DNA of 39,057 nt from positions 1-39,057 of the IMG/VR virus record IMGVR_UViG_3300029818_000005. One strand, written 5' to 3'. This stretch comes from a virus. Under the pieces are notes generated by a model that saw nothing but the letters and a program-made list of their open reading frames with translations, had not been told where the DNA came from and did no database searches. A program made the position numbers and the translations under genes. This document shows positions 2,356 to 34,105 of this stretch, in pieces (positions within the stretch are counted from its first letter, which is position 1; every line of letters starts with the position of its first letter).

Positions 2356-2936
2356 CCGACGGGTTACCGCAAACCTGCACGCAAGCCGAGTTCGCCCGCC
2401 TGCTCGGCTACCGGCGCAGCTACGTCACCGCGCTCAAGCGCGATGGCCGGCTGGTGCTGGCAGATGATGGGGCAGTGCAGGTGGCCGAGTCGATCGCGCG
2501 CATCGAAGCCACTCGCGACCCCGGCAAGCGCGCCGTCGCAGAACGCCACGCCGCGGCACGCGAGGCGGCACCGTTGCCGGCAGAGGTAGCGCAGGCCGCC
2601 CCGGAGCCGCCGGCCGCCGCGCCTGTCATGGATGACCCGGCCAGCCCCGGCTACCAACACTGGCGCGAGCGCCGCGAACGCGCCGCAGCGCTCGCCGCCG
2701 AGCGGGACAACGCCCTGGCCGATGGCAAGTTGCTGGCTGCCGATGATGTGGCGGCGCAGGTGGCCACCGCGTTTGTCACCGCACGCGGCGCGCTGGAAGC
2801 GCTGCCAGATATCCTCGCCCCGCAACTAGCGGCTGAAAGCGACGAAGCGCGGTGCCGGGCGCTGTTGGTGGAGGCGATCGAGCTACAGCTTGGCGATCTC
2901 AGTCGCCGCCTGGCGGCGTTGGAAGGTCAGCCGTGA
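2352..2936 (+). CDS. terS: Terminase small subunit (N-terminal HTH, Nu1-like arrangement)
   Basis: ATGA overlap with the upstream gene. The HTH reads TQAEFARLLGYRRSYVTALKRDGRL. The gene lies directly upstream of, and is coupled (GTGA) to, the large subunit. Confidence 0.7.
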   Translation: MTDGLPQTCTQAEFARLLGYRRSYVTALKRDGRLVLADDGAVQVAESIARIEATRDPGKRAVAERHAAAREAAPLPAEVAQAAPEPPAAAPVMDDPASPGYQHWRERRERAAALAAERDNALADGKLLAADDVAAQVATAFVTARGALEALPDILAPQLAAESDEARCRALLVEAIELQLGDLSRRLAALEGQP

Positions 2937-7323: not shown

Positions 7324-9557
7324 ACAAACACAGGTCAGCGCCTGGCATCGGCGTCCGTGCAACCGCGCGCTCACCCGACCGCCAGCACATCGAACCCATG
7401 ATGCAGCTCCGGCCGGCTGCCGATGCCGCCGGGTACGAACTGCTGATTTACGGGGATATCGGCGAGTCCTGGTGGGGCGAGTCTGTCACCGCCCGATCAG
7501 TCGTTGAACAACTCAACGGGATCGCTGTCGGCACCCAGACCGTCAACGTCCGCGTCAACAGCTACGGCGGCTCCGTTGCCGATGGCCTCGCGATCTACAA
7601 CGCGCTGCGCCGTGTCTCATCGCGAGGGATCCGCGTGGTCGTCACCGTCGATGGCGTCGCGATGTCGTCGGCAGCAACCATCGCAATGGCCGGTGATGAA
7701 GTGATCATGCCGGATTCGTCGATGTTGATGATCCACGCCCCATGGGGTGGCGCGGTCGGCAACGCCAATGAGTTGCGGACATACGCGGATGTGCTCGACA
7801 CATTCGCCGAAGCGATGGCCGCAGCCTATACCGCCAAGAGCGGCAAGCCGCGCGCCGACGTGTTGGCGCTTCTACAGGATGGCGCCGACCACTACTACAC
7901 CGGCGAGCAAGCGGTAGCGGAAGGTTTCGCCGACCACATCGTCAGCACCGACGCCACAACCGCCGAACCGGACGCGCAAGCACGCGCCTTCGCCAGCGGC
8001 CTTTTGCAGCGGTTCCTTACCAGAGCACCTGAAAGCGTGGCCCAGCAAGCCATCGCCGCATCCCTGCGCTCTCGCATGGCTGTACCACAACCCACCAAAC
8101 CGGCGGAACCCGCCGCCAATGGAGACGATCTCATGTCCTACCTCGCACGCGCCCGCACGCGCCTTCAGAACCGCGCCGACGACCACGCAGGTGGTGGCGG
8201 CTCCGCGCCGGCACCGGCGCCAGCCCCGCCCACGGCCTCCGCCGATCGCACATCGATCCTGGCTGCGGACCAGCAGCGCCGAAGCGCCATTCGCGCGCAC
8301 TTTGCGCCGCATGCCGCGCGCACGGATGTCAATCAGGGTGAGATCGCACGGCTGCAGCGGGAGTGCGAAGACGCCGTGGATTGCACGCCTGAGGCGGCGG
8401 GGCTGAAACTTTTGGCGATGCTCGGGCAGGGCACCACGCCGACGGGCGCCGGCCGCGTCGAGGCCGGCAGCCAGGACGAAACCGAAACCTATCGCACCGG
8501 CGCAATCAGTGCGCTGCTCAATCGCGCCAACCCGTCCGCGCACAAGCTCGATGAGCGTGGCGCGCAGTTCCGCGGCTTCAACCTCGGCGACCTCGCCCGC
8601 GACTGCACCGAGCGCGCCGGCGTCCGTACGCGCGGCCTGTCCAAGCAAGAGATTGCAGTGCGCGCAATGCACTCGACCAGCGATTTCCCGTTGATCATCG
8701 AGAACGTGATCACCAAGTCGCTGCGCGCCGGGTACGCCGGCAGCTCGCGGACTTTCACCTTGTTCAGCCGTCAGGCGACCCTGCCCGACTTCAAGCAGAT
8801 CAGCCGCGTGCAGCTCGGCGGAGCGCCCAACCTCAAGCGCGTACAAGAGGGCGCGGATTACGAGTTCGGCACCATCGGCGAGGGCGCCGAGAAGTACGCC
8901 GTCCAGAAATACGGCCGGATCGTCGCCATCACCTGGGAGACGATCATCAACGATGACATGGACGCGCTCACCCGCATCCCGCAGGCGTTCGGCGCCAGCG
9001 CCGCCGACCTGGAAAGCGACATCGTCTACGCCATCCTGACCGGCAATCCGGGCATGGCTGACGGCGTGGCACTGTTCCACGCCAGTCACGGCAACCTCGG
9101 CGCCGCCGCCGCACTGTCCGATGCACTCGATCCGACCAAGGCCAACCCGCTCGCCGAGATGCGCAAGATGATGCTGCTGCAGAAGGGCATCGAGGGCCGC
9201 TACATCACCGTGCGCCCGCGCTACCTCATGGTCCCGCCCGACCTGGAGGAGACCGCACTCAAGGTCACCAACGCTACCCTGGTGGCCGGCAAGGCGGGCG
9301 ACGTGAATGTGGTCGGCCCGACCCTGGTGCCGGTGGTCGAACCGCGCCTGCACGACGGCAGCGCCACCGCATGGTTCGGCGCTGCCGAGCCCAGCACCAT
9401 CGACACCATCGAGTTCGCCTACCTGCAGGGCCATGAAGGTGTGTTCACCGAGACCCGCAACGGCTTCGAGGTCGATGGGGTGCAGGTCAAGTGCCGCCAC
9501 GTGTTCGGCGCCAAGGCCATCGACTTCCGCGGTCTGTTCAAGAACGCCGGCGCGTAA
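7320..9557 (+). CDS. ClpP-type prohead protease fused to the major capsid protein
   Basis: ATGA overlap with portal. The N-terminus VNSYGGSVADGLAIYNAL...AMSSAATIAMAG...MIHAPWGG is ClpP-like. An Ala/Pro-rich linker follows, then a C-terminal roughly 400 aa with capsid-like features (FPLIIENVITKSLRAGY...). Confidence 0.85.
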   Translation: MNKHRSAPGIGVRATARSPDRQHIEPMMQLRPAADAAGYELLIYGDIGESWWGESVTARSVVEQLNGIAVGTQTVNVRVNSYGGSVADGLAIYNALRRVSSRGIRVVVTVDGVAMSSAATIAMAGDEVIMPDSSMLMIHAPWGGAVGNANELRTYADVLDTFAEAMAAAYTAKSGKPRADVLALLQDGADHYYTGEQAVAEGFADHIVSTDATTAEPDAQARAFASGLLQRFLTRAPESVAQQAIAASLRSRMAVPQPTKPAEPAANGDDLMSYLARARTRLQNRADDHAGGGGSAPAPAPAPPTASADRTSILAADQQRRSAIRAHFAPHAARTDVNQGEIARLQRECEDAVDCTPEAAGLKLLAMLGQGTTPTGAGRVEAGSQDETETYRTGAISALLNRANPSAHKLDERGAQFRGFNLGDLARDCTERAGVRTRGLSKQEIAVRAMHSTSDFPLIIENVITKSLRAGYAGSSRTFTLFSRQATLPDFKQISRVQLGGAPNLKRVQEGADYEFGTIGEGAEKYAVQKYGRIVAITWETIINDDMDALTRIPQAFGASAADLESDIVYAILTGNPGMADGVALFHASHGNLGAAAALSDALDPTKANPLAEMRKMMLLQKGIEGRYITVRPRYLMVPPDLEETALKVTNATLVAGKAGDVNVVGPTLVPVVEPRLHDGSATAWFGAAEPSTIDTIEFAYLQGHEGVFTETRNGFEVDGVQVKCRHVFGAKAIDFRGLFKNAGA

Positions 9558-11899: not shown

Positions 11900-13108
11900 A
11901 TGCCCACCGATTTTTTGCATGGCGTTGAAGTTGTCGAGATCGACAACGGCGCACGCCCCATTGCCGTCGCCCGCTCCAGCGTCATCGGACTGGTCGGCAC
12001 CGCGCCCGATCTGGATGCCGTTGCGTTGCCGGCCAGCTTCGCGACCCAGACCGACTGGGATGCCGCCAAGGCCGCATTCCCGCTGAACACCCCGGTGCTG
12101 ATTGCGGGCAGCTTGCGCGAGGCGGCGCAGTTGGGACTGGCCGGTACCTTGCCGGCGGCACTGCGCGGCGTGTTCGACCAGACCGGCGCGCTGGTGGTGG
12201 TGGTGCGCGTGGCCGAAGGCCTCGACGCCGCCGCGACGCAGGCCAACGTGATCGGCGGCGTCGATGTTGGCACTGGCCAGTACACCGGCATCAGCGCGTT
12301 CCTCGGCGCCGAGAGCACGGTAAAGGTGACGCCGCGCGTGCTGGTTGCGCACGGCTTCAGCCAGAACGCAGCGGTGGCCAACGCGCTGTTGACGGTCGCC
12401 GATCGTCTGCGTGCAGTGGTTATCGCCGATGGCCCGAACACCGATGATGCTGCGGCGATTGCCTACGCCGGCACCTTCGGCAGCGCGCGCTTGTTCCTGG
12501 TTGATCCGTGGGTCAAGGTGCTGTCGGCGAGCGGCGCCGAAACGGTCGAACCGGCGTCCGCGCGCGTGGCCGGCCTGATCGCCAAGTCCGATTCCGAGCG
12601 CGGCTTCTGGTGGAGCCCGTCGAACCAGGAACTGCGCGGCGTGCTTGGCACCGCTCGGCCGGTGGACTTCGCCTTGGGCGACGCCAACGCGCGCGCCAAC
12701 CTGCTCAACGAAGCGAAGGTGGCCACGATCATCCACCAGAACGGCTTCCGGCTGTGGGGCAACCGCAGCGCCACCATCGATCCCAAGTGGGCGTTCCTGA
12801 GCGTGCGTCGTACCGCCGACATCATCAACGAAAGCCTGCTGCGCGCGCACCTGTGGGCGGTGGATCGCAACCTCACCCGCACCTACGTCAGTGATGTGAC
12901 CGATGGCCTCAACGCCTTCATGCGCCAGCTCACCGCGCAGGGCGCCATCCTCGGCGGCCGCGCCTGGGCCGATCCGGACCTGAACACACCAATCAGCCTC
13001 GCCGCCGGCAAGGTGTTCTTCAACTTCGAGTTCACCCCGCCGGCACCGGCCGAGCGCATCACCTTCCGCTCGCAGCTCACCAATGACTACCTGCAGGAGA
13101 TTCTGTAA
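11900..13108 (+). CDS. gpFI: Contractile tail sheath protein (P2 FI-like)
   Basis: GAAGGAG RBS; 402 aa. MPTDFLHGVEVVEIDNG...GFRLWGNRS is typical of the sheath family. Confidence 0.9.
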   Translation: MPTDFLHGVEVVEIDNGARPIAVARSSVIGLVGTAPDLDAVALPASFATQTDWDAAKAAFPLNTPVLIAGSLREAAQLGLAGTLPAALRGVFDQTGALVVVVRVAEGLDAAATQANVIGGVDVGTGQYTGISAFLGAESTVKVTPRVLVAHGFSQNAAVANALLTVADRLRAVVIADGPNTDDAAAIAYAGTFGSARLFLVDPWVKVLSASGAETVEPASARVAGLIAKSDSERGFWWSPSNQELRGVLGTARPVDFALGDANARANLLNEAKVATIIHQNGFRLWGNRSATIDPKWAFLSVRRTADIINESLLRAHLWAVDRNLTRTYVSDVTDGLNAFMRQLTAQGAILGGRAWADPDLNTPISLAAGKVFFNFEFTPPAPAERITFRSQLTNDYLQEIL

Positions 13109-14244: not shown

Positions 14245-14464
14245 TCGCAATGACGCCCTCGGTCAGTCGCCAGATGACAGCGGCGAACAAGACAACCGGC
14301 ACCATTGCGATCAATGTACCGATGAGCGCAGCAGGGATCGAGGCGATCCAGCCGAAGCCTTCGCCGAACACCAGCCAGCCCCACAGCGATCCGAACAGAG
14401 CAATGCCGATCCACTGACCGAAGGAAGTACGCATGTCATCGAACCTGGCCATTGGCGTTACCAT
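14198..14464 (-). CDS. Opposite-strand small membrane protein (2 predicted TM helices) between the chaperone and tape measure genes
   Basis: WIGIALFGSLWGWLVFG and IASIPAALIGTLIAMVPVVLFAAVIW. The codon third position is GC-biased. It fills an otherwise 190-nt gap on the plus strand. ATG 14434 is an alternative start. Confidence 0.5.
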   Translation of the reverse strand: MVTPMARFDDMRTSFGQWIGIALFGSLWGWLVFGEGFGWIASIPAALIGTLIAMVPVVLFAAVIWRLTEGVIAIIREGKPPSPPPPTR

Positions 14465-17147
14465 CGGTGCCGTATTGGGCGCGACCTATGATCGCGCGTT
14501 CAATGGTGCCACATCGCGGGTCAACCAGCTAGGCGACGCGATGCGATCATTCAAGAGTCAGCGCGGCTTGACCGAGGCGTTCGACCGCGACGAAGCCGCT
14601 GTCGGCAAGGCGCGCATTGCGCTGGAGAAGGTGCAACGCGAAGTGATGGCGGTCAAAAAGGCGCTGAAAAAAGACCCCAACAATCGGGCGCTGGCCAAGG
14701 ATCTGGAAAAGACCGAGAAGACCGCTGCTGAGTTGTCGGCAAAGCTGAACTCCGCGCGCGTTGCTGCCACGAGGTCTGGTCAAGCGATGCGGCAAGCCGG
14801 GCTGGATGCAGCAAAGTCCGCGCAGGAGCACGTACGCTTGGGCGCGGCCATCGACAAGGTCGAGAGGGAGCAGAAGCAGCTCGACGCAGTGCTGTCGCGC
14901 CGCAATCAAGCCGGGGCCCGTATCGGCCAATTGCGCACGCAATTGCTTGGCCTCACCGGTGTCGCGTTCGCCGCCGGCAAAGCGATTGGCCAGGCGCTCG
15001 ATGTCGAGCGGGCCACCGTGCGCCTGTCCACTGTGGTGAACGCTGGTGATGTTGATGCTGCGGTCAAGGCATCGCGGCGCAGTGCGATCGAGTTCGCGCG
15101 GGCCAACCTGACATCCGAGGGCGACGTGCTGAACATCGAGTACGCGCTCAACTCGGCAGGCTTCGAGGCATCGTTCGCGCGCTCCACGTCCGGCCTGGTG
15201 GCCAAGGTGGCCAAGGTCACCGATGGCACGGCCGAGCAGGTTGGCGAGGTGATGGCCACCGTGTTCAACAACCTGGGCTCTTCGCTGCAAGGCACGCAGG
15301 AAGAGCAGATCACCCGCATCGGCGAGTTGCTGACCAAGACCCAGTTCAAGTTCCAGATCCGCGATTTCGGCCAGCTCGGCGAATCGTTCAAGGCTGCATC
15401 GCCCACATTGGCGCGCTTCAATGTCGAGCTCGATCAAGGCGCGACCCTGATCGGCGCGCTCAACTCGGCCGGCCTGCAAGGTGGCGCGGCCGGCACTGCG
15501 CTGTCCGCCAGCTTCCGTGGGCTGGGCAAGGCATCCAAGGAAATGGGATTCCAGATCGCCAAGAACGCCGAAGGAGGAACCGACTTCACCACCACGCTGG
15601 AGAACCTCAGCCAGTCGATTGGCGGATTCGAGAGCCTCTCTGATGACACCAACGCCGCATTGCAAAAAGCGTTTGGGGACGAAGGCGTCAAGGGTGTGGT
15701 GTTGCTGGGCAAGCAACTCGACAAGCTGCGCGCCGCGCAAAAGGACGTGACCGAAGGCTCGAAGGGTCTTGTCGACAAGAGCTACCAGCGTTTTCTGGAC
15801 TCGGCATCGGGCAAGACCGAGATTTTCCAGAACAACGTGCGGCTGCTCGGTACGGCGTTCGGCGCCGGGCTGGTGCCGATACTCAATACCGTGCTGCCGC
15901 CGTTGGTGTCGATCACCATTGCCGTTGGCCGGCTGCTTGATGATTTTCCCGTGGTCGCCACCGGCATTGGCGTGGTGGTGGGTGCAGCGGCGTTGTGGAC
16001 CGTCGGCGTGCTGGCGGCCAACGCCGCTACGTGGCTGTGGAACAGCGCCATCTTGGGACTGAAGTTCGGCACGGCATTCGCACGGCTGCGGGTGCTGACC
16101 GTGGCAACCTGGGCGTATGCGCGCGGCGCGCTGCCGGGCGCGATCTCGGCAGCATCGCGGCTTGGCTCGGTGCTCGGCGGCGCGCTAACGCGGGGGCTTG
16201 CCATGGCTGGCAGGGGGGTGGCGATCCTCGGCCGCGCGCTGCTGCTCAATCCCATCGGCCTTGCGGTCACCGTGATTGCCGGCGCCGCGTTCCTGATCTG
16301 GAAGAACTGGTCGAAGATCGGCCCGGCGCTGAAGGCGTTCTGGGGTGGCATAAAAAACGCAGCGAGCAAGGCATGGGGCGGGATCAAGGCCGTTGCCGGC
16401 ACCGTATTCGACGCCTCGAAGAAAGCCTTCTCCTTCACGCCGCTGGGATTGGTGGTGCGTAATTGGGGGTCGATCAAGGGCTTCTTTGGCAACCTCGGCG
16501 AGCGCCTGAAGCCCGCATTCAACGCCATCTGGACCGCCTCGAAGAAAGCCTTTTCCTTCACGCCGCTGGGCTTCGTCATCAAGAACTGGGGCGCGATCAT
16601 GGATTTCTTCAAAGCGCTGCCGAGCAAGTTCGGCGCGATCGGTGGACAAATCATCGACGGCTTGCTGGGTGGCATCACGGCGGGCTGGGATCGTCTGAAG
16701 GCGGGCGTGACCAACATCGGCGACGGCATCGCCAACCAGTTCAAGTCGGTGCTCGGCATCAAGTCGCCGAGCCGCGTGTTCATGGGCCTGGGCGACATGT
16801 TGGGGCTCGGGTTGCAGCAAGGCATGCTGGGCACTGCAAGACTGGTGGCGGGCGCGGCGTTGGCGTTGGCGACAGCGGCGACGCCGGATATCCCCGGCAG
16901 TGCAGGGCCTGGCGTGGGCGTTGGCGCACGGGGCGCAGGCGCGGCGGCCGCAGTTGTTGCTGCGGCAGGCGGTGCGCCGGCAACAACGTCAGCGCCAACA
17001 TCCGCCACGATGCAGATCACCATCGGCCCGATCCAGATCACGCAGCAGGCCGGCGAGGATGCCGAGGCGCTGGCCGAGCGCGTGGCCGCCGCGATCGAAC
17101 GCAAGGCCGGCCGCATCCGTCGCGCCGCGCTGGGTGACCTGGCATGA
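14433..17147 (+). CDS. gpT: Tail tape measure protein
   Basis: 904 aa. Coiled-coil N-terminus, hydrophobic Gly/Ala-rich middle. Lies after the E/E' genes. Confidence 0.9.
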   Translation: MSSNLAIGVTIGAVLGATYDRAFNGATSRVNQLGDAMRSFKSQRGLTEAFDRDEAAVGKARIALEKVQREVMAVKKALKKDPNNRALAKDLEKTEKTAAELSAKLNSARVAATRSGQAMRQAGLDAAKSAQEHVRLGAAIDKVEREQKQLDAVLSRRNQAGARIGQLRTQLLGLTGVAFAAGKAIGQALDVERATVRLSTVVNAGDVDAAVKASRRSAIEFARANLTSEGDVLNIEYALNSAGFEASFARSTSGLVAKVAKVTDGTAEQVGEVMATVFNNLGSSLQGTQEEQITRIGELLTKTQFKFQIRDFGQLGESFKAASPTLARFNVELDQGATLIGALNSAGLQGGAAGTALSASFRGLGKASKEMGFQIAKNAEGGTDFTTTLENLSQSIGGFESLSDDTNAALQKAFGDEGVKGVVLLGKQLDKLRAAQKDVTEGSKGLVDKSYQRFLDSASGKTEIFQNNVRLLGTAFGAGLVPILNTVLPPLVSITIAVGRLLDDFPVVATGIGVVVGAAALWTVGVLAANAATWLWNSAILGLKFGTAFARLRVLTVATWAYARGALPGAISAASRLGSVLGGALTRGLAMAGRGVAILGRALLLNPIGLAVTVIAGAAFLIWKNWSKIGPALKAFWGGIKNAASKAWGGIKAVAGTVFDASKKAFSFTPLGLVVRNWGSIKGFFGNLGERLKPAFNAIWTASKKAFSFTPLGFVIKNWGAIMDFFKALPSKFGAIGGQIIDGLLGGITAGWDRLKAGVTNIGDGIANQFKSVLGIKSPSRVFMGLGDMLGLGLQQGMLGTARLVAGAALALATAATPDIPGSAGPGVGVGARGAGAAAAVVAAAGGAPATTSAPTSATMQITIGPIQITQQAGEDAEALAERVAAAIERKAGRIRRAALGDLA
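16413..16625 (+). repeat. Tandem 123-bp (41-aa) duplication inside the tape measure gene
   Basis: gcctcgaagaaagcctt(c/t)tccttcacgccgctggg occurs at 16413 and 16536. Protein level: ASKKAFSFTPLGLVVRNWGSIKGFF versus ASKKAFSFTPLGFVIKNWGAIMDFF. Confidence 0.75.
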
Positions 17148-17833: not shown

Positions 17834-18039
17834 TGCGCGAGTATCGCACCCGCGACGGCGACACCCTCGACGCCATCGCCTGGCGCGTGTACGGCCGGCA
17901 CGGCGCCGTCGTAGCGTTAGCCGAAGCAAACCCGCGGGCGCTTGACGCACCGGTATTGCCGGCTGGCGTGGTGCTGCAACTACCAGTGGTCCCCACGGCG
18001 CCGAGAGTGGCCACCGTGCGGCTGTGGGGCGCGGCGTGA
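17833..18039 (+). CDS. gpX: Tail protein X (LysM-like), P2 gpX-like
   Basis: MREYRTRDGDTLDAIAWRVYGR...VLPAGVVLQLP matches the gpX pattern. Confidence 0.8.
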   Translation: MREYRTRDGDTLDAIAWRVYGRHGAVVALAEANPRALDAPVLPAGVVLQLPVVPTAPRVATVRLWGAA

Positions 18040-19013
18040 AGCCGGCGTTCGCCATCACGCTGAACGGAACCGACATCACTGGCAATATCGCTGATCGCCT
18101 GATTTCGCTCAGCATCAGCGATGAGGCGGGTATTTCGTCCGATCGATTCGAACTGTCGCTCGATGACCGCGACCACGCCTTGGGATGGCCCGGTGCTGGC
18201 GTCGAGCTGGAGATTGCGCTCGGCTACCGCGAGACTGGCGGCGCACGGACGATGGGGCGCTACACGGTTGACGAAGTGGAGTCGTCCGGGCCGCCGGCCG
18301 TGCTGAACCTGCGCGGCGCCGCTGCCGACATGCTGGCCAGCCTCAAGAGCCAGCGCCGCGCTGACTATGACGGCAAGACGCTGGGCGAAATCGTGCGCAC
18401 CATTGCTGCCCGCCACCGGCTCACCCCGCAGATTGCCGCGGCCTTGGAAGCGCAGCCGGTGGAACACCTGGACCAGACCGACGAAAGCGACCTGCACCTG
18501 CTCACACGGCTGGCCGAGCAGTTCGGCGCCATCGCCAAGCCCGCAGCCGGGCGCCTGTTGTTCGTCGAGGTCGGGAAGGGTCTGGACGCGAGCGGCGCCG
18601 CCATGCCGGCGGTTGCGATCGTCCGCAATCAGGTAACGAGCTGGCGAGCGTCCGAGCAAGAGCGGCAGTTCTATTCGCGGGTGGAAGCGCGCTGGAAGCC
18701 GCCGCGCAAGCATGCCACCCAGACCGTGGTGGTGGGCGATGGCGACCCATCGACCACGTTGCGCAACGCGTTCCGCTCGGAGCTCGACGCCCGCCGCGCT
18801 GCCGAGGCGCGCTTGCGCAAAATGTCGCGCGGGCGCACCTCGCTCAGCCTGGGCGTGCCTGGCGACCCCGATCTGGTTGCCGAGCGCCCGATTACCCTGT
18901 CCGGGTTTCGCGACGGGGTGGATGGCGACTGGATCATCACCCGCGCCGAGCATCGCCTCGACAGCAGCGGCTACAGCACCAGCATCGAGGCGCAGCGGTC
19001 TGTGGCAGACTAA
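18036..19013 (+). CDS. gpD: Late control/tail protein D, P2 gpD-like
   Basis: GTGA overlap with gpX. KPAFAITLNGTDITGNIADRLISLSISDEAG. GTG 18024 is an alternative start. Confidence 0.85.
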   Translation: MKPAFAITLNGTDITGNIADRLISLSISDEAGISSDRFELSLDDRDHALGWPGAGVELEIALGYRETGGARTMGRYTVDEVESSGPPAVLNLRGAAADMLASLKSQRRADYDGKTLGEIVRTIAARHRLTPQIAAALEAQPVEHLDQTDESDLHLLTRLAEQFGAIAKPAAGRLLFVEVGKGLDASGAAMPAVAIVRNQVTSWRASEQERQFYSRVEARWKPPRKHATQTVVVGDGDPSTTLRNAFRSELDARRAAEARLRKMSRGRTSLSLGVPGDPDLVAERPITLSGFRDGVDGDWIITRAEHRLDSSGYSTSIEAQRSVAD

Positions 19014-19063
19014 AAAAGTCTCGCGTCCGCCATGACGTGAGACAGCCGCGCATGAAATGCTCC
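19012..19063 (+). promoter_or_regulatory. Conserved dyad element, copy 2 (A6-GTCTCGCGT-N8-ACGTGAGAC plus flank)
   Basis: The only other copy of the 5517..5568 element in the window. It sits in the gap between gpD and gpW. Confidence 0.6.
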
Positions 19064-19413
19064 CGGGCATGCTAGGCATGTCCCGAACCAGCGGCCGATT
19101 GCTCGATGAATTGACGCATCTGCGGCAATCGATTGCCGATATCCTGACGACGCCCATTGGCTCGCGGGTGATGCGTCGCGACTACGGCTCGCGCCTGTTC
19201 GAGATGGTGGACGCGCCGATCAACGCGCGCACCCTGGGCGACATCTACGCCGCCACCGTGGACGCGCTGCGGCGTTGGGAGCCGCGCCTTGCCGTTCGCC
19301 AGGTGCGCGTGTTGCAGGCCGCCGCAGGGCGCTTGGAACTGGCGCTCTCCGCCGACTTCCGCGACGGGGCCCAACGCACCCGTATCAATCTGCCTATCGA
19401 GGTGTCGGCATGA
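19057..19413 (+). CDS. gpW: Baseplate protein W (gp25/lysozyme-like fold family)
   Basis: LGMSRTSGRLLDELTHLRQSIADILTTPIGSRVMRRDYGS matches P2 gpW. ATG 19068 is an alternative start. Confidence 0.85.
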   Translation: MLPGMLGMSRTSGRLLDELTHLRQSIADILTTPIGSRVMRRDYGSRLFEMVDAPINARTLGDIYAATVDALRRWEPRLAVRQVRVLQAAAGRLELALSADFRDGAQRTRINLPIEVSA

Positions 19414-20297
19414 GCGTTGATCTGTCGCTGCTGCCGCCGCCTACGGTTATCGAACCGCTCGACTTCGAGACAGTGCTCGCCGCGGCGAAGTCGGATGCGC
19501 TCGCCGTATTCCCCGAGCTCGCCGACGTGCTGGCGCTGGAATCCGAGCCGGTGACCAAGCTGTTGCAAGTGTTCGCCTACCGCGAGCTGCTGCTGCGCGC
19601 GCGAGTCAACGATGCCGCCCGAAGCGTTATGCTGGCCAGCGCCACCGGCAGCGATCTGGAACAACTGGCCGCGCTGTTCGGCGTATCGCGCCTGGTGCTT
19701 GATCCCGGCGATGCCGCCGCGACCCCGCCGATCGCGCCGACGCTGGAAACCGATGCCGATCTGCGCCGACGCACGCAACTTGCGCCAGAAGGATTCAGCG
19801 TCGCCGGCCCTGAGGGTGCCTACATCTTCCACGCGCTGAGCGTTGCCGACGTGCTCGATGCCAGCGTCACCAGCCCGGCCCCGGGTGAGGTCGTGGTGTC
19901 GGTACTCTCGCGCACCGGCGACGGCGCCGCCAGCGCTGAGCTGGTGCTCGCAGTGGCCGCTACGCTCACCAGTACCGCCGTGCGCCCGCTGACCGACATG
20001 GTGACCGTGCAATCGGCGCAGGTCGTGCCCTACGCTGTCACCGCCATGCTGTGGACGTTGCCAGGGCCCGATGCCGCCGTGGTGCTCGCCACCGCGCAGG
20101 CCCGCGTGCAGGCACTGATTGCAGCCACGCGCCGGCTCGGCCGCGACATTGCGCGCTCAGCGCTGATCGCCGCGCTGCACGTCGATGGCGTGCAGCGGGT
20201 TGATCTGACCGAACCAGCCGTCGACATCGTGATCACGCCGAGCCAGGCCGGCAGCGCCACGGCGGTGACGATCACCAGCGGGGGCAGCAATGTCTGA
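19410..20297 (+). CDS. gpJ: Baseplate protein J
   Basis: ATGA overlap; 295 aa. The position and FAYRELLLRARVNDAARSVMLA pattern are typical of gpJ. Confidence 0.85.
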   Translation: MSVDLSLLPPPTVIEPLDFETVLAAAKSDALAVFPELADVLALESEPVTKLLQVFAYRELLLRARVNDAARSVMLASATGSDLEQLAALFGVSRLVLDPGDAAATPPIAPTLETDADLRRRTQLAPEGFSVAGPEGAYIFHALSVADVLDASVTSPAPGEVVVSVLSRTGDGAASAELVLAVAATLTSTAVRPLTDMVTVQSAQVVPYAVTAMLWTLPGPDAAVVLATAQARVQALIAATRRLGRDIARSALIAALHVDGVQRVDLTEPAVDIVITPSQAGSATAVTITSGGSNV

Positions 20298-20913
20298 CCA
20301 CCTGCTGCCACCGAACGCCACGCCGCTGGAGCGCGCGCTCGAAGCGGCGACGCTGCGCATCGATGCGATCCCTGTCCCGCTGCGCACACTGTGGAATCCC
20401 GACACCATCCCGGCCCCGCTGCTGCCGTGGCTCGCCTGGGGGCTATCCGTTGACGACTGGGATACCGCCTGGACCGAGCCACAAAAGCGCGCCGTGGTCG
20501 CAGCCAGCATCCGCGTACACCAGCACAAAGGCACCGTGGGCGCCATGCTCACCGCGCTGGCCGCGCTCGACTACAGCGCGCAGTTGATCGAGTGGCACCA
20601 GAGCGCGCCGCAACAGCCGCCGTACACATTCAAAATCCGCGTCACTTTGGATGCGCGCGGCATCATCGACGGCATCTGGGGCGAGGTCGAGCGCACCGCG
20701 CTGGCGGCAAAGAACGCCCGCAGCCACCTCACCGCCGTGCAATTGCTGCACACCTCGCCCAGCCCGGTAGTGATGGCCGCCGCGATCACCGCTGCCGAGA
20801 TCATCACCATCCAGCCGTGGCAGCTCACCGAAATCGACAGCGCCGGGCCGCTACGCATTGGCGCGGCAATTTCCGCCCGCGAAACCGTCACCATCTCACC
20901 GCAGGTGCATTGA
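20290..20913 (+). CDS. gpI: Tail protein I
   Basis: LLPPNATPLERALE...LWNPDTIPAPLLPWLAWGLSVDDWD...HKGTVGA matches gpI. Confidence 0.8.
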   Translation: MSDHLLPPNATPLERALEAATLRIDAIPVPLRTLWNPDTIPAPLLPWLAWGLSVDDWDTAWTEPQKRAVVAASIRVHQHKGTVGAMLTALAALDYSAQLIEWHQSAPQQPPYTFKIRVTLDARGIIDGIWGEVERTALAAKNARSHLTAVQLLHTSPSPVVMAAAITAAEIITIQPWQLTEIDSAGPLRIGAAISARETVTISPQVH

Positions 20914-20916
20914 CCG

Positions 20917-21423
20917 ATGAACTTCTTCACCCTGCTCACCATCACCGGCAAAGCCAAGGTGGCCGCCGCCATTGCCTCCGGCATCCCGCTCGCCATCACC
21001 CAGATGGCGCTTGGTGACGGCGGCGGCGCGGCAGTGACGCCAAGCGAAAACCGCGCTGCGCTGATTGGCGAGGTCAACCGCGGCCCCGCCAATTCGCTCG
21101 GCGTCGATCCGCTCAACCCGAACTGGGTCACCGTCGAGCGCATCATCGCGCCCGAGGTCGGCGGCTGGACGATCCGCGAGGTCGGCCTGTTCGATGCCGC
21201 CGGTGACCTGATCGCCTACGGCAATTTCCCCGACAGCTACAAGCCGCAACTGGCCGAGGGCAGCGGAAAAGAACTGGTGATAAAAGTCCAGATCGAAGTC
21301 GCCAACGCCAGCGCCGTCACCCTGCTGATTGATCCCAGCGTGGTGCTGGCCACGCGCGCCTACGTCGATGCGCAGTGGTTGTTGCACCGCGCCCGCCGCC
21401 ACTATTTCGCCACCGCAAACTAG
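20917..21423 (+). CDS. Short tail-fibre protein containing only the gpH-type N-terminal collar domain
   Basis: MNFFTLLTITGKAKVAAAIASGIPLAITQMALGDGGG...REVGLFDAAGDLIAYGNFP is the conserved fibre N-terminal domain. The protein is only 168 aa. Confidence 0.65.
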   Translation: MNFFTLLTITGKAKVAAAIASGIPLAITQMALGDGGGAAVTPSENRAALIGEVNRGPANSLGVDPLNPNWVTVERIIAPEVGGWTIREVGLFDAAGDLIAYGNFPDSYKPQLAEGSGKELVIKVQIEVANASAVTLLIDPSVVLATRAYVDAQWLLHRARRHYFATAN

Positions 21424-25267: not shown

Positions 25268-26236
25268 CTACAGGACCGGTTTCACGCGCTCTGGCTTGGC
25301 GCGGTAGTGGCGCTGCGTGACCTTGGCGTCGCGGTGGCCGAGCAACCGTGTTGCGTGCTCGCCCTCGATGTCGCTGCCGGCCTTGCGCCGCAGGTCATGC
25401 AAGGTCATGTGCGCAAGCCCAGCCTTGGCCAGCGCCCGCCGAAAGTTGCTGCGCAGTCCGCTGACGGTGTACGGCCCGGCCGGCCCGGCGCGGGTTGGGC
25501 GCGATTCGAACAAATAGCGGCGGCCGAAGCGGCGAAATGTGCGGGCGATCTCATCGAGCAGGGCGCGCAGGTCTGGCGTTATCTCGATCAGAAGGCGCGC
25601 GCCGGTCTTGCGTTGTTGGTAGGCGATGCCGTCGTCGGTGATCGCATCCATCGGCATCGCGAGCGCGTCGCCAATGCGCATGCCGGTGGTGTACACGAAG
25701 CGTAGGATGACGGCGAGGCGCGGCGGTGCGGCGGCGATCAGTGCTGCGAACTCGGCATCGGTGACGTAGCGTTGGCGCGGGACTTCCGGGTTGCGGAATT
25801 GCAGGCGCTTGGTGGGGTCGTCGCCGCTGAACGCGCCGATGCGGCGTGCGTGGCTGTACGCAGCGCTCAGCAACGCGCGATCGCGGTTCGCCTGCACGGT
25901 GCCGTGCTCGACCAGGTAGCGGTAGACGTGCGCGGCGGTGAGGTCGCTGAGAGCCATGCGGCCGAACACTGCGGCCAGCCTACGGGCGCCGTTGCGGTAG
26001 CCTTCGAGGGTGGCGGGCCGTAGTCGTGCCGCGCTCGATTCAAGGTAATGTGATACCGCATCGGCGACCGTGGTCACGGTTGGCGTGTTGCCCACAAGCT
26101 CGGCGTAGCGGATTAGCGCCGGGCCGTACTCACTGGCGAGCCGGTGCCATTTGCCGGCAGCGACGAAGTAGTAGGCGCCGTGCCGGTGCAACATACCGCG
26201 CGGCAGGTGCTTGTCATGCAGTCTTGGCCGGCCCAT
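25268..26236 (-). CDS. int: Tyrosine integrase
   Basis: 322 aa with TGMRIGDAL (Arg), HDLRRKAGS and LLGHRD...TQRHY (His/Arg/Tyr catalytic pattern). Confidence 0.9.
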   Translation of the reverse strand: MGRPRLHDKHLPRGMLHRHGAYYFVAAGKWHRLASEYGPALIRYAELVGNTPTVTTVADAVSHYLESSAARLRPATLEGYRNGARRLAAVFGRMALSDLTAAHVYRYLVEHGTVQANRDRALLSAAYSHARRIGAFSGDDPTKRLQFRNPEVPRQRYVTDAEFAALIAAAPPRLAVILRFVYTTGMRIGDALAMPMDAITDDGIAYQQRKTGARLLIEITPDLRALLDEIARTFRRFGRRYLFESRPTRAGPAGPYTVSGLRSNFRRALAKAGLAHMTLHDLRRKAGSDIEGEHATRLLGHRDAKVTQRHYRAKPERVKPVL

Positions 26237-30694: not shown

Positions 30695-30722
30695 TTGCAT
30701 TGATAGCACAATGTGATATCAT
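30695..30722 (+). promoter_or_regulatory. hicAB promoter: -35 TTGCAT, 16-nt spacer, extended -10 TGaTATCAT
   Basis: ttgcat tgatagcacaatgtga tatcat. The -10 ends 7 nt before ATG 30730. Confidence 0.55.
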
Positions 30723-30729
30723 GTGCCGC

Positions 30730-30984
30730 ATGAACAGCGCGCACCGCAAGACGTTGGCCGCCATCTTTGCCGAACCGGTGAACGGGGCATTGGAGTGGTC
30801 CAGAATCGAGGCGCTGCTGCTGGCCATCGGCTGCCGGCGAGTTGATGGCAGCGGGTCGTCGGTCACGTTCGAGAAGGATGGGGAGAAGGTGTTTTTCCAT
30901 CGCCCGCACCCGCGTAAGGAAGCGCTGCGTTACCGCGTCAAGGATGCGCGCTCGTTCTTGCAATGCATTGGAGTAACGCCATGA
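30730..30984 (+). CDS. hicA: HicA-family mRNA interferase toxin
   Basis: MNSAHRKTLAAIFAEPVNGALEWSRIEALLLAIG...VFFHRPHPRKEALRYRVKDARSFL is the classic HicA pattern. Confidence 0.85.
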   Translation: MNSAHRKTLAAIFAEPVNGALEWSRIEALLLAIGCRRVDGSGSSVTFEKDGEKVFFHRPHPRKEALRYRVKDARSFLQCIGVTP

Positions 30985-31310
30985 ACACCATGATCTACAA
31001 GCGCTACGCGGCCCGCATCGAGTACGATCCGGAAGATCGCATCTTCGTCGGCCACGTTGCCGGCATCCGCGATGTTGTGGGATTCCACGGGTCCACGGTG
31101 GACGAACTGGAGCAGGCGTTCCATGCTGCGGTGGACGATTACACCGAGGCATGCAGCAAGCTGGGGCAGCGCCCAGAGCGGCCGGCGAGCGGCAAGATAC
31201 TGCTGAGGGTGTCGCCGGATTTGCACGCCGTCGCGATCCGCGCCGCCGAGCTCGCCGGCAAAAGCCTCAATCAGTGGGCGGCCGACACTCTTGGGCAGGC
31301 GGCGCGGTGA
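30981..31310 (+). CDS. hicB: HicB-family antitoxin (RHH C-terminus)
   Basis: ATGA overlap with hicA. YKRYAARIEYDPEDRIFVGHVAGIRDVVGFHGSTVDELEQAF...SGKILLRVSPDLH...KSLNQW. Confidence 0.85.
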   Translation: MNTMIYKRYAARIEYDPEDRIFVGHVAGIRDVVGFHGSTVDELEQAFHAAVDDYTEACSKLGQRPERPASGKILLRVSPDLHAVAIRAAELAGKSLNQWAADTLGQAAR

Positions 31311-31389: not shown

Positions 31390-32259
31390 TCAGCGGGTCA
31401 ATTCGCGCATCCACGCCTTGGCGCTCAGCGCCTCGCCGGTGTCGGTACGCACGACTTCGCCGACGATGCGGTCGTAGCGGAATGTGCGCTCGGCTTGGCG
31501 CTCCATGCAGTATCCAGCAAAGCATTGCCTGTCCGCGCGATGCACTACTACTTCTCGGTCGGTCACGTTGCCGAAAGCGTCTTCGTAGGTAAATGTCACG
31601 CGCTCAGGTCCTACTGCAGCAGTTGAACCATCCCAACCGCCATCTCCGCGATGCGACACATCGTGCATGGGAGAGCGCAGCAAGCGGATACCGTCGTCAT
31701 GATTGGGTGTTTCGAGGCGCGCGGATTTTTCCAGATCCCGCCTTGCGCAGAGTTCGCGCACAGACGCTGCGGCCCGTTCTCGCTGGAGACGCAGGCGCTC
31801 GGGTAAGGTTTCGAGCGCGATGAGTCGTTGCCTTTCGCGCTCTTCGCGCTCCTCGCGCAGGCGGCTTTCCTCCGCTTCGCGCCGAGCACGCGCCTCTTGC
31901 GCGGTTTGAGCGTCGGCCTGGCGCCATGCGTCTTTTGTTTCTGCCTTGAATCGCAGCCACTCCGCACGGATATTGCCAACCTGTGCGCTGATCGCTGTCA
32001 GCTTCGGCAGCATCAGCAGCGCGGCGATCATCGAAACGCTTGCAACCGTGCCTGGGAGGCGCACGCCGATGCCAAGCAGCATCGCCAGAAACCACACGGC
32101 GCTGCCGCCGAACAGTCCGGCGAGATGGCGCAATACGGCATGCCGGCCGGCCATTCGACCGCGTTGCGCGATCACCGCCCATACCGCCGCGAACAAGATC
32201 AGGCTGGCGATGATCAGAAATCCTTCTGCCGCTGTTGGCGGCTGCGGCTCAGGCGACAT
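31390..32259 (-). CDS. Unrecognised protein: 3 TM helices, E/R-rich coiled coil, WYL-like C-terminal domain (gene C of the repressor operon)
   Basis: TM segments FLIIASLILFAAVWAVIA, LAGLFGGSAVWFLAMLLGIGV and VASVSMIAALLMLPKL. Coiled coil ARARREAEESRLREEREERERQRL. C-terminus VTFTYEDAFGNVTDREVVV...CFAGYCMERQAERTFRYDRIVGEV. GGAGG 5 nt upstream of the ATG. Confidence 0.7.
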   Translation of the reverse strand: MSPEPQPPTAAEGFLIIASLILFAAVWAVIAQRGRMAGRHAVLRHLAGLFGGSAVWFLAMLLGIGVRLPGTVASVSMIAALLMLPKLTAISAQVGNIRAEWLRFKAETKDAWRQADAQTAQEARARREAEESRLREEREERERQRLIALETLPERLRLQRERAAASVRELCARRDLEKSARLETPNHDDGIRLLRSPMHDVSHRGDGGWDGSTAAVGPERVTFTYEDAFGNVTDREVVVHRADRQCFAGYCMERQAERTFRYDRIVGEVVRTDTGEALSAKAWMRELTR

Positions 32260-32752
32260 CACGGCCTCCGTGAGCCACGGGGGAGCTGCGGCGCGCACGC
32301 CACCATCGCGCCAACCGCTTGAACGGCGCTTCGCGCTTCGGTGGGTCTTCGCGCGCGGCGATCTCCACCACCAGCTCGGCCCAGCGGCGCTCGGCGGCGG
32401 CCACTACGCGACGGTGCCGGCGGCGCACGTCGTAGAGCGCGAACAATATAGCGACCGCGATCAGCCCACCCATCCACAGCAGCGCCGGGCCTGCTTGATG
32501 GCGATCGGCTTCCGGGGCGCCAAGCAAGCTCAAGCTGAGCACGCCGATTACCAGCACTGCGGCAAGAAATGGCACCAGCAGCACGGTCAACGCCAGCGCT
32601 TCGTGGCGCCGCGCCGCGCTGTGCAGGCGATCACGTGCAGTTTGCAGATCGGCCAGCGGCAAGGTTTGAATCCACTCGGGCGCACCGCCGATGTGGATCG
32701 TCTGGTCGCGTATGTACAGGTGCTGCGCGATGTTGCCGGCACGCTCAGCCAT
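32249..32752 (-). CDS. Unrecognised 2-TM protein with an N-terminal QTIHIGG motif (gene B)
   Basis: TGATG overlap with gene A. TM segments ALALTVLLVPFLAAVLVIGVLSLSLL and ALLWMGGLIAVAILFALY. Arg-rich tail. Confidence 0.65.
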   Translation of the reverse strand: MAERAGNIAQHLYIRDQTIHIGGAPEWIQTLPLADLQTARDRLHSAARRHEALALTVLLVPFLAAVLVIGVLSLSLLGAPEADRHQAGPALLWMGGLIAVAILFALYDVRRRHRRVVAAAERRWAELVVEIAAREDPPKREAPFKRLARWWRARRSSPVAHGGRDVA

Positions 32753-32955
32753 CACGGTGTCTTTGCCTTTGTCGGCGGCGCCGTTTGGTGGATCGTCTGC
32801 GAGCCGATATGCACGATACCGGCGTTGACTACGGTGCTGCCGCAGATATGCACGTTGCCCGCAGCCGGTGTTGCGGCCGGCACGGCCGCCGCCAGGGCTT
32901 CGTCTAGTTGCCGGCGGGCCTCAACAACGGCGGCATTGATGTCATCGTCTCGCAT
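32752..32955 (-). CDS. Unrecognised 67-aa protein carrying NVHICG, IVHIGS and TIHQ repeats (gene A)
   Basis: Starts 3 nt after the repressor stop. The codon third position is GC-rich. Confidence 0.55.
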   Translation of the reverse strand: MRDDDINAAVVEARRQLDEALAAAVPAATPAAGNVHICGSTVVNAGIVHIGSQTIHQTAPPTKAKTP

Positions 32956-32958
32956 GCG

Positions 32959-33474
32959 CTATTCCTGCTTGGGGTGATCGGCCAGTTCTTCGGTAAGGAC
33001 TTTCTGCAGGGCCTCATCGAGTGCGCGGCGGCTAGCAGCGAGCGCAACGCCAGCCGCCAGGCTTTGATAGGCCAGCACGATGGCCCTGGCTAGCGCCGCG
33101 TCGGTGGGCAGCAGGCGTTTGCGCCGAAAGGCATCCATCGCCTCGCTGACCGCCCGGCTCAGCAACACCGGGTCGGGGCGGTGCGACAGCGGGCTGATCG
33201 TCACGGTCTCGATGGCCGTGGTTGCGACGCCGATATGGACGGTGCCGTGCGGCTGATCCATCCAGCCTTGGGCCAGGCCGAACGTGCGCTCTATGGCGCG
33301 GGCTAGCGCATGCCCGATGCCCTTTGGGTTCGTCTCAGAAATCCATTGGCTGACTTGCGCCTGGGACCAGTCCCCTGACTTTTCTGCAAACTTGGTTGGC
33401 CCACCCTCTCGGGTTACCAAGGCGCGGATGTTCATGGTCCTGGCAGTCTTCGCATCCATGTGCTCATAGTGCAT
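32959..33474 (-). CDS. CI-type repressor: XRE-family HTH N-terminus, helical C-terminus, no S24 peptidase domain recognisable
   Basis: MNIRALVTREGGPTKFAEKSGDWSQAQVSQWISETNPKGIGHALARAIERTFGLAQGWMDQP. The start is uncertain: ATG 33474, 33459 or 33435. The longest ORF (to 33546) would overlap the cro ATG. Confidence 0.7.
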   Translation of the reverse strand: MHYEHMDAKTARTMNIRALVTREGGPTKFAEKSGDWSQAQVSQWISETNPKGIGHALARAIERTFGLAQGWMDQPHGTVHIGVATTAIETVTISPLSHRPDPVLLSRAVSEAMDAFRRKRLLPTDAALARAIVLAYQSLAAGVALAASRRALDEALQKVLTEELADHPKQE

Positions 33475-33544: not shown

Positions 33545-33820
33545 ATGAATATCTCAGCCTACACGCGCGCCGAGGGTGGAACCGGCAAAATCAATTGCCC
33601 AGTGCTCGCCCGCGTGGCAGATCGCGCCGGATGCAGCTTCCGGACGCTGTACATGATTGCGCTCGGGCACAAGCGCGCGTCCCCGCAACTTGCGCAGCGC
33701 ATTCAATCCGCCACGGACGGCGCGGTCTCGATTGCCGAGCTGCGCCCCGACCTCGTTGCAGCGATAGAAGCCGCCGGCTACACCCGCGCAGACCCCACGC
33801 CCACCGAGAAGGCGGCATGA
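33545..33820 (+). CDS. Cro-like HTH regulator
   Basis: First gene after PR, divergent from the repressor. HTH VLARVADRAGCSFRTLYMIALGHKRASPQLAQRI. Confidence 0.65.
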   Translation: MNISAYTRAEGGTGKINCPVLARVADRAGCSFRTLYMIALGHKRASPQLAQRIQSATDGAVSIAELRPDLVAAIEAAGYTRADPTPTEKAA

Positions 33821-33823
33821 GCC

Positions 33824-34105
33824 ATGAAACCTCACTACTGCGTCCGCAACGGCCGACTGATGCGCGTGGCGTCGCCCATGGACACGAAAACCGCCGTTCT
33901 GATCACCGCCCTCGGTGGCCCCACCGCCGTCGCGCGCCGCTTCAAAATCCGCTCGCCCTCGGTGATCGGATGGCGCACGCGCGGCGGCATCCCGGCTGCG
34001 CGCTTGCAGACGCTGCAGGCGATGGCGGTCACCCAGCAAGACATTGCCGCCGCACTCGTTGCGGCCGGTTTCCCTGTGTGCGACAGCGAGCGCGAGGCCG
34101 CCTGA
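33824..34105 (+). CDS. YdaS/Cro-family HTH protein
   Basis: LITALGGPTAVARRFKIRSPSVIGWRTRGGIPAARLQTLQAM matches the YdaS-type pattern. ATG at M19 is an alternative start. Confidence 0.6.
   Translation: MKPHYCVRNGRLMRVASPMDTKTAVLITALGGPTAVARRFKIRSPSVIGWRTRGGIPAARLQTLQAMAVTQQDIAAALVAAGFPVCDSEREAA

Follow-up and report, generated by a model that had tools for sequence, protein, structure and literature searches.

The Bab/Agp system (BASS11) of E. coli ECOR25 is a two-gene abortive-infection system, encoded in a defence island within prophage sequence. It shares a 20-aa (amino acid) amyloid motif between the C-terminus of Bab (109 aa) and the N-terminus of the neighbouring product (bioRxiv 10.1101/2024.11.07.622273). 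By analogy, it is the nearest precedent for the two genes described here, which we call A and B. They lie beside the repressor gene R on the minus strand of the IMG/VR virus record IMGVR_UViG_3300029818_000005, analysed as one stretch of 39,057 nucleotides (the window). Gene A (32752-32955) encodes 67 aa and gene B (32249-32752) encodes 167 aa. Gene R (32959-33474) encodes 171 aa from the ATG of the gene calls and 195 aa as the longest open reading frame (ORF). Judged from sequence comparison, one motif of about 20 residues, kept at the protein level, occurs twice: in the C-terminal tail of A and again in the N-terminal head of B. The two genes appear to form a small, conserved and unannotated module, whose genomic layout is the signature of amyloid-type signalling and whose architecture is new.

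Like Bab and Agp, A and B are encoded by adjacent genes in phage-derived DNA. The motif of about 20 residues occupies the C-terminus of the small protein and the N-terminus of the next product. By that paper's description, the two systems also agree in a composition of N, Q, G and aliphatic residues, and in that one partner is presumed to act at the membrane. The differences concern the remainder of the proteins and the location. Unlike Bab, A has no Bell-like or N-terminal hydrophobic helix domain. Agp is a 1094-aa TPR-GreA/B-C-PIN sensor, whereas B is a predicted two-pass membrane protein of 167 aa with no evident sensor domain. Finally, Bab/Agp is found in a defence hotspot and A-B in a repressor operon.

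In the BASS motifs, Q, N, G, V and I are over-represented, and K, P and L are scarce (Dyrka et al., bioRxiv 10.1101/2020.01.06.895854, section 9). They are about 25 aa long and terminal, sometimes with pseudo-repeats on one partner (bioRxiv 10.1101/2020.01.06.895854). The A-B pair shows the same bias, with pseudo-repeats on A and a single copy on B. A short motif at the termini of adjacent gene products, with one C-terminal and one N-terminal copy and with ORFs overlapping by few bases, is also the arrangement of the Bell/NLR pairs BASS1-10 and of fungal HET-S/NWD2, PP and sigma. However, the BASS and FASS pairs have an NB-ARC or NACHT NLR and a Bell or HeLo domain. Here, the partner with the N-terminal copy has no NLR or other oligomerising sensor, and the partner with the C-terminal copy has no Bell, HeLo or other effector domain. 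The hosts differ as well. Bell/NLR pairs occur in multicellular actinobacteria or cyanobacteria, and A-B in a phage of 66% G+C with P2-like tail genes.

The tail motif of A (AGNVHICGSTVVNAGIVHIGSQTIHQT, 32782-32862, minus strand, residues 32-58) and the head motif of B (RAGNIAQHLYIRDQTIHIGG, 32684-32743, minus strand, residues 4-23) follow the consensus xGN-phi-Axxxx-phi-xxQT-phi-[NH]-phi-G, with QT-phi-[NH] as the conserved core. Both are rich in N, Q, G, V and I, and also in H and T. They are poor in K, P, L and charged residues. The A tail consists of two pseudo-repeats, VHIcGsTvvN and VHIGSQTIHQ. By hhalign, A 37-59 aligns with B 10-31 (P 0.011). We scanned all 653 six-frame segments of the window (68 kaa, thousand amino acids) with a profile of 23 B heads. 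The best non-self match was the second repeat of the A tail, with a score of 9.9 and an independent E-value (i-E) of 0.027. Likewise, an A-tail profile made without the window sequence still matches the A tail of the window (21 bits). The tail of a distant A, that of locus L018, is identical to the B head of the window at 10 of 20 positions (BLASTP E 2e-5).

R, A, B and a fourth gene, C, are tightly packed head to tail on the minus strand. The stop of R is followed by the start of A after a 3-nt gap, the stop of A and the start of B overlap by 1 nt (TGATG), and B and C overlap by 11 nt. The neighbourhoods of 13 further distinct loci were read, which makes 14 with the window. The order R-A-B, in which the stop of A overlaps the start of B or adjoins it, is present in 12 of them. 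The R-A-B loci are the window, L005, L007-L015, L017 and L018; L007 is without R, its contig ending within A. Gene A is kept as an ORF of 56-73 aa between R and B (12/14 distinct loci, L007 being cut at the contig end). A Cro-like gene stands divergent from R in the loci with the R-A-B order. The C-terminal domain of R travels together with A and B, and the helix-turn-helix (HTH) domain of R varies. The B proteins are only 22-45% identical, yet the terminal positions of the motif and the tight gene coupling are kept.

Several of these loci show the same peculiarity on both partners. In L018, the upstream tail NAGNVANTIHIDQQTQHVGK and the B head NAGNFAQVITVANQTINLGS are identical at 9 of 20 positions without gaps. 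The corresponding segments of L016, TFGGDNKGNVAGKQKVKSMRFG and SFGGDNRGNVAGVQNVDRIEFK, agree at 13 of 22 positions, and both contain FGGDN[KR]GNVAGxQxV. QT is replaced by QV in tail and head alike in L017, both segments end in DG in L015, and APKxQxG occurs in both partners of L005. We compared each cognate pair with shuffled tails by Smith-Waterman alignment. The p values were < 2e-4 for L016, < 2e-4 for L018, 8e-4 for L015, 0.002 for L017, 0.017 for the window, 0.07 for L005 and 0.15 for L014. So, the A-B pair is individually significant in five of seven clades. The cognate score sum was reached by 99 of 5040 partner permutations. By these comparisons, we consider the shared motif robust. 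Pair-specific co-evolution is suggestive only, because the permutation result weakens without L016 and L018.

In one further case (P0042, 96 aa, on a Logan contig of 4.9 kb), an A-type protein and a B head are naturally fused in frame. This protein contains ...NVHIGTQTIHFTIVTIVHQTINVGGRPERIQ..., with the two motif copies in tandem, and then continues as apparent frameshifted B sequence. This protein is probably a deletion or a pseudogene.

The B family is rare. It comprises 10 clusters at 90% identity among 5.8 billion proteins, and 25 representatives at 50% identity among 1.84 billion proteins. No relative of B was found among 185,579 GTDB species genomes, and no DNA-level relative among GenBank phages. 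IMG/VR holds a single contig with a B relative. The phages with the module of R C-terminal domain, A and B are thus almost solely metagenomic in the collections searched, with one IMG/VR viral contig and none in the GTDB species genomes or GenBank phages. The consensus of the B heads is xGN[VI]Aq...[VI].nQT[IVL]N[LIVM][GNS]G, followed by PEWIQ. The AlphaFold2 (AF2) model of B has a mean predicted local distance difference test (pLDDT) value of 87, with helices at residues 33-78, 81-134 and 143-155 and low confidence at residues 1-17. Two hydrophobic segments (about residues 50-82 and 86-110 by hydropathy) fall inside the two long helices. B would be a two-pass membrane protein, and its flanking basic residues suggest that both ends are in the cytoplasm. 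Its most conserved part is a strongly conserved basic helix, YDVRRRHRRVVxAAERRWAELVVEIAARE, which is predicted to be cytoplasmic.

Pfam contains no family for B. The match to DUF6232 (PF19744) was rejected: it reached 19.8 bits against a cut-off of 27.4 (E 1e-3), and only 1 of 25 members gave it, which marks it as an effect of the membrane helices. A Foldseek search of B against the PDB returned generic long helical hairpins only (Vipp1/PspA and alpha-pore-forming toxins, E > 0.6). No sequence relatives of A or of B are present in the PDB. The PADLOC defence models gave nothing for R or A, and noise only for B (E 0.022).

Gene A has no relatives in Pfam, PHROG, PADLOC or the PDB. Its parts are, in order, a putative N-terminal helix, a P/A-rich spacer, the beta-prone tail and a P/K-rich end. 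Among homologues, the tail presents two main forms, ..G.TA[IV]NVG..VHIGSQTI[HN]Q and ..GGTIGAVHTAPVRIESQTLNFT. The VHIG of A becomes VRIE, VTIG or VVIG in relatives, which leaves I..[S]QT as the invariant part. The N-terminal helix of A (residues 8-24, 32884-32934, AVVEARRQLDEALAAA) resembles the last helix of R (residues 143-166, 32977-33048, ALAASRRALDEALQKV). Both contain LDEAL within an RRxLDEAL likeness (hhalign P 0.0056). Judging from this resemblance, A may derive from the end of R, or mimic it, which makes a functional link among R, A and B conceivable.

The original prediction had described the motif otherwise, as a (V/I)HIG peptide recurring in three consecutive proteins. The peptides themselves are present as described: GTVHIGV in R, GNVHICG, GIVHIGS and QTIHQ in A, and QTIHIGG in B. 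The four corresponding 12-mers are on the plus strand at 33229, 32842, 32803 and 32687. Translation of the whole window in six frames gives exactly three occurrences of [VI]HIG, one each in R, A and B. The claim that HIG is far above chance held in part. The naive expectation in 405 aa is 0.054, which gives P(>=3) = 2.5e-5. Nevertheless, the tripeptide was picked after the fact, and a Bonferroni correction over 8000 tripeptides brings the P value to about 0.2, so that the excess is moderate only. A shuffle test for any 4-mer common to R, A and B, with V and I taken as equal, gave 309 of 20000 (p about 0.015). The window sequence alone suggests the sharing of HIG, and the homologues are what decide.

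In relatives of A or B, the H is not kept. The HIG site reads QT[IVL]N[ILVM][GNS]G in the 25 B representatives, with H at the N position in the window's protein alone; among close relatives of B, H recurs in two more. In this comparison HIG is incidental and the motif had been mis-delimited. The likeness between A and B is real and longer than HIG, whereas the copy in R falls outside the motif by profile. It is a caution for motif spotting: the striking tripeptide is not the conserved core, nor do all three proteins share it as a motif.

R matches PHROG 12107, annotated as a transcriptional repressor (E 2e-20). Its AF2 model (pLDDT 81) shows an HTH domain at residues 8-64, a flexible linker and a three-helix C-terminal domain at residues 102-166. 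R gave no match to the S24 peptidase (PF00717), and its C-terminal domain is a three-helix bundle in the model. The class of self-cleaving repressors of LexA or lambda CI type was ruled out for R, as there is no S24 peptidase domain. The HTH type of the window's R (33265-33474) is also fused to an S24 peptidase in P0062 and P0064, the latter a Xylella fastidiosa protein, among the R homologues P0046-P0065. The HTH is swapped among at least three unrelated types, and the C-terminal domain remains alignable wherever R was read beside an A-B pair; L016 differs. Since the HTH is swapped while the C-terminal domain, A and B are kept, the recombination breakpoints would lie in the R linker.

The HIG of the repressor is carried by an insert in this linker (GTVHIGVATTAIETVTISP, 33190-33246, minus strand, residues 77-95) with the pattern G[TIS][VLI]H[IV]G[VA].TT.[IV]ETVT[IV].P. 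The pLDDT is below 50 at residues 79-95. In the models, the R linker and the B head lie largely in low-confidence segments and not in confidently folded cores. Of 17 R homologues, 6-7 have the insert. It is absent in L005, L008, L009, L015, L017 and L018, all with A and B, and its presence is independent of the type of A. At profile level, three independent profiles led us to reject a further copy of the A/B motif in the R linker. R is absent from the top 15 window matches of the B-head profile, the A-tail profile scores the R linker at noise level, and the R-insert profile finds no A or B match above noise.

The R linker insert (TVHIGVATTAIETVTISPLSH) resembles two tandem units at the C-terminus of the phage's own baseplate protein gpI (gene 20290-20913; Tail_P2_I spans residues 6-144). 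These units, VVMAAAITAAEIITIQP and LRIGAAISARETVTISPQVH, form a C-terminal extension (20776-20910, plus strand) and match the R-linker profile with i-E 7e-4 for VVMAAAITAAEIITIQP and 2.5e-5 for LRIGAAISARETVTISPQVH. The linker and a gpI unit are identical at 13 of 22 positions (BLASTP E 2e-4) and share the exact 7-mer ETVTISP. The same codon is used at 6 of the 13 identical residues. In phages Mano and PPpW-3, gpI has the same two-unit layout, which the R-linker profile does not match. By these scores, the repressor HIG has a closer relative in gpI than in A or B, and the VHIG copy of R is probably unrelated to the A/B motif.

The locus L016 has no small gene A. Its repressor-like protein (L016:1077-1628, 183 aa) ends instead in the B-head motif (TFGGDNKGNVAGKQKV..). 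A 298-aa gene (L016:1636-2532) lies between the repressor-like protein and B (L016:2501-3127), with sub-threshold Pfam matches to BRCT (E 8e-4) and DUF533. This arrangement reads as a Rosetta-stone-type link from the repressor to B, and it would fit a functional link among R, A and B.

For the A-B pair, we propose by analogy with the amyloid systems a homotypic cross-beta motif for docking or templating, which would couple A to the membrane effector B. We hold this reading tentatively, at somewhat less than an even chance. A and B are made from translationally coupled genes, with both motif copies presumably in the cytoplasm. The A tail and the B head would pair homotypically as parallel, in-register beta strands, on the same principle as HET-S/NWD2, the BASS of Bell/NLR pairs and the BASS11 of Bab/Agp. 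The small soluble A would then dock onto, seed or cap the N-terminus of B, and thereby control the self-assembly of B in the membrane, either as activator or as inhibitor. In the lysogen, the pair would be expressed from the repressor operon. Its role might be that of a prophage two-component membrane effector, acting in superinfection exclusion or abortive infection, and less likely that of an input to the lysis-lysogeny switch. A wider form of the proposal is a phage amyloid-type signalling without a sensor. A cross-beta motif of about 20 residues would join a tiny cytosolic protein to a two-pass membrane effector within the immunity operon, and would stand on the repressor C-terminus in some relatives. 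The assembly state of the repressor module would be read at the membrane as death, exclusion or commitment to induction. We regard this wider form as rather unlikely.

A shared beta-strand, homotypic or amyloid-like motif had been among the first explanations offered for R, A and B together. It is the best fit for A and B, given the profile match, the L018 likeness and the five significant clades of seven, and it does not extend to R. Several observations weigh against cross-beta coupling even for A and B. Pfam and PADLOC found neither an NLR or TGP sensor nor a Bell or HeLo domain in A or B, and Foldseek found none in B. The Pfam models of fungal and metazoan amyloid motifs gave no match, and those of RHIM, HET-s and Ses_B none even at E <= 1. 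The loci are few and related. Without L016 and L018, the cognate score sum is reached by 13 of 120 permutations. In the window, the identity of A and B amounts to QTIH and few further positions, and the spacing from AG to QT is unequal in the two. Finally, AF2 predicts a hairpin at B 18-21/24-27 (TIHI-GG-APEW) with a pLDDT of about 88, and the motif may simply belong to the own fold of B. This last point leads to a different origin for the likeness. The A tail and the B head could descend from one ancestral segment by duplication, each now forming its own beta hairpin, with no contact needed. The model pairs the end of the B motif with the B-specific strand PEWIQ. The likeness is short in the window and in the type-2 loci, and the pair-specific co-variation is not significant without two loci. 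However, independent drift would not be expected to put clade-specific features on both partners, as in L005, L015, L016, L017 and L018, nor to keep terminal positions and tight coupling across such divergent B proteins. We find a relic of this kind quite unlikely. The likeness could also be kept by a common receptor site, which both peptides fit without stacking. In this case the A tail would mimic the B head and compete for its site on the cytoplasmic helix of B or on a neighbouring B. A would be a labile inhibitor of a membrane toxin, B, and its loss on infection or induction would free B. A small gene upstream that overlaps a larger one by 1 base is the usual order of antitoxin and toxin. 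Flexibility is expected of the A tail, most of the B head has low confidence in the AF2 model, and the basic helix of B is a possible docking site. Besides, HicAB modules adjoin the operon, in a region that collects toxin-antitoxin cassettes. Nevertheless, Pfam and PADLOC gave no toxin or antitoxin family match, and in L016 the motif stands on a repressor-like protein of 183 aa and not on a small protein. An antitoxin or decoy role of A is in our view unlikely.

Cross-beta coupling and its two competitors concern A and B only. The proposal that the repressor is part of the same system goes further. The R linker, A and B would share a (V/I)HIG element, perhaps as a protease or partner site, that couples repressor inactivation to A and B. 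Within the window, [VI]HIG is indeed confined to these three genes, and VHIGxxT is in register in R and in both repeats of A. The linker around the R copy is conserved but of low confidence, which would be expected for a short linear motif. The B-head motif at the end of the L016 repressor-like protein, the likeness of the A helix to the last R helix, and an R C-terminal domain that travels with A and B under a swapped HTH also point in this direction. On the other hand, the R segment is an optional insert, missing in six loci that keep A and B, and its presence does not track the type of A. Neither the B-head profile nor the A-tail profile scores it above noise, nothing in the phage matches it better than the C-terminus of gpI, and H is not conserved in A or B. 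For this window, a link to repressor inactivation is not supported, and we judge a shared three-protein element improbable. The remaining proposal, to which we give almost no credence, is that the 12-mers are a DNA-level site, an operator or a recombination element that happens to be coding. A family of 21-nt direct repeats has three copies, at 32803, 32842 and 33229. A and B both contain the exact 12-nt repeat CAGACGATCCAC, and the rarer histidine codon CAT is used in three of the four copies. The 12-mer with at most two mismatches is found 12 times in the window against 5.5 expected, and 1 of 100 shuffles reaches 12. However, every copy is in frame, and none lies on the non-coding strand. 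Outside the R, A and B genes, only matches with two mismatches are present, with none in the R/Cro intergenic region, where operators would lie. Above all, the peptide is kept while the codons vary synonymously among loci (CAT/CAC, GGC/GGT, CAG/CAA, ATC/ATT and GTG/GTA/GTC), which speaks for conservation at the peptide level. Within single loci, where tail and head have the same residue, the codon is also the same in only 9/13, 4/9, 3/8 and 3/5 cases. These differing codons make recent gene conversion unlikely.

The core tetrad of RHIM is (I/V)Q(I/V/L/C)G. VHIG, IHIG and VHIC have the same phi-X-phi-G shape, with a polar residue at position 2 and a beta-prone, G/N-rich context. Particular RHIM sequences presumably resemble them too, which we take as a lead. 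Assignment to the RHIM/PP/BASS3 class was rejected. At position 2 the window has H and relatives have N, R, T or Y, never Q, no G-phi-Q-phi-G is present, and Pfam RHIM and Ses_B are unmatched.

RexA and RexB of lambda are a soluble and a membrane protein encoded beside the prophage repressor, and they are co-transcribed with cI in the lysogen. The mycobacteriophage Sbash proteins gp30 and gp31 are reportedly a two-component exclusion system expressed next to the repressor. A and B share with both pairs the layout of a soluble and a membrane protein beside a prophage repressor. However, A and B have no sequence or profile similarity to these systems (PADLOC gave no match), RexB has four membrane helices, RexA is far larger than A, and neither pair is known to share a terminal motif. 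The best Foldseek matches of R itself are SPC32H Rep (PDB 5d50) and the phage 186 CI (6vli); the 5d50 match has a probability of 1.0 and is weak, with E 0.055, a TM-score of 0.36 and about 20% identity. Like these antirepressor-controlled repressors, R consists of an HTH and a helical C-terminal domain without an S24 peptidase. Unlike them, it has a beta-prone linker insert with no identifiable counterpart.

If cross-beta coupling of A and B is correct, amyloid-type signalling in the conflict of phages and bacteria would have a second architecture besides that of Bab/Agp. This one would be the first to do without a sensor of NLR-like or TGP type, and the first wired directly into a repressor operon. 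In the wider form of the proposal, amyloid signalling would extend from NLR/TGP defence to the core lysis-lysogeny circuitry of a temperate phage. With proteins of 67 and 167 aa, the system would be minimal and an easy experimental model. The motif could also serve as a sequence signature for pairs missed by domain-based defence finders, PADLOC and Pfam being blind here. If it were only a docking or decoy peptide, it would still define an unannotated conserved module of R C-terminal domain, A and B in phage immunity regions.

With about 39 kb and 65.6% G+C, the window is the genome of a temperate myovirus. It encodes a terminase (2852-4870), a fused head protease and capsid gene (7059-9557, plus strand), a tail sheath (11900-13108), a tape measure (14433-17147), baseplate genes (about 18000-21400) and an integrase (25268-26236, minus strand). 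The fused gene is a single ORF of 832 aa, which matches the head maturation protease and the major head protein (phrog_133 and phrog_4523). A KilA-N protein of 494 aa (871-2355, plus strand; Pfam E 1e-21) also matches PHROG families annotated as transcriptional regulator and anti-repressor. As R has no self-cleavage domain, this protein is a candidate for its antirepressor. The two HTH genes divergent from R (33545-33820 and 33824-34105, plus strand) have Cro/YdaS-like matches in Pfam and PHROG, and this pair marks the immunity switch region.

Gene C (31390-32259, minus strand, 289 aa as called) encodes a protein with a hydrophobic N-terminus, a charged E/R-rich stretch and a C-terminal WYL domain (Pfam E 9e-5; PADLOC E 1e-6). 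WYL domains are ligand sensors in regulators of defence systems. This gene is accessory, as it lies downstream of B in only 3 of 10 close loci (the window, L011 and L014). A HicA/HicB toxin-antitoxin pair (30721-31310, plus strand) is convergent with the R-A-B-C operon. In related loci, HicAB or Gp49/HTH_37 modules occupy the same position.

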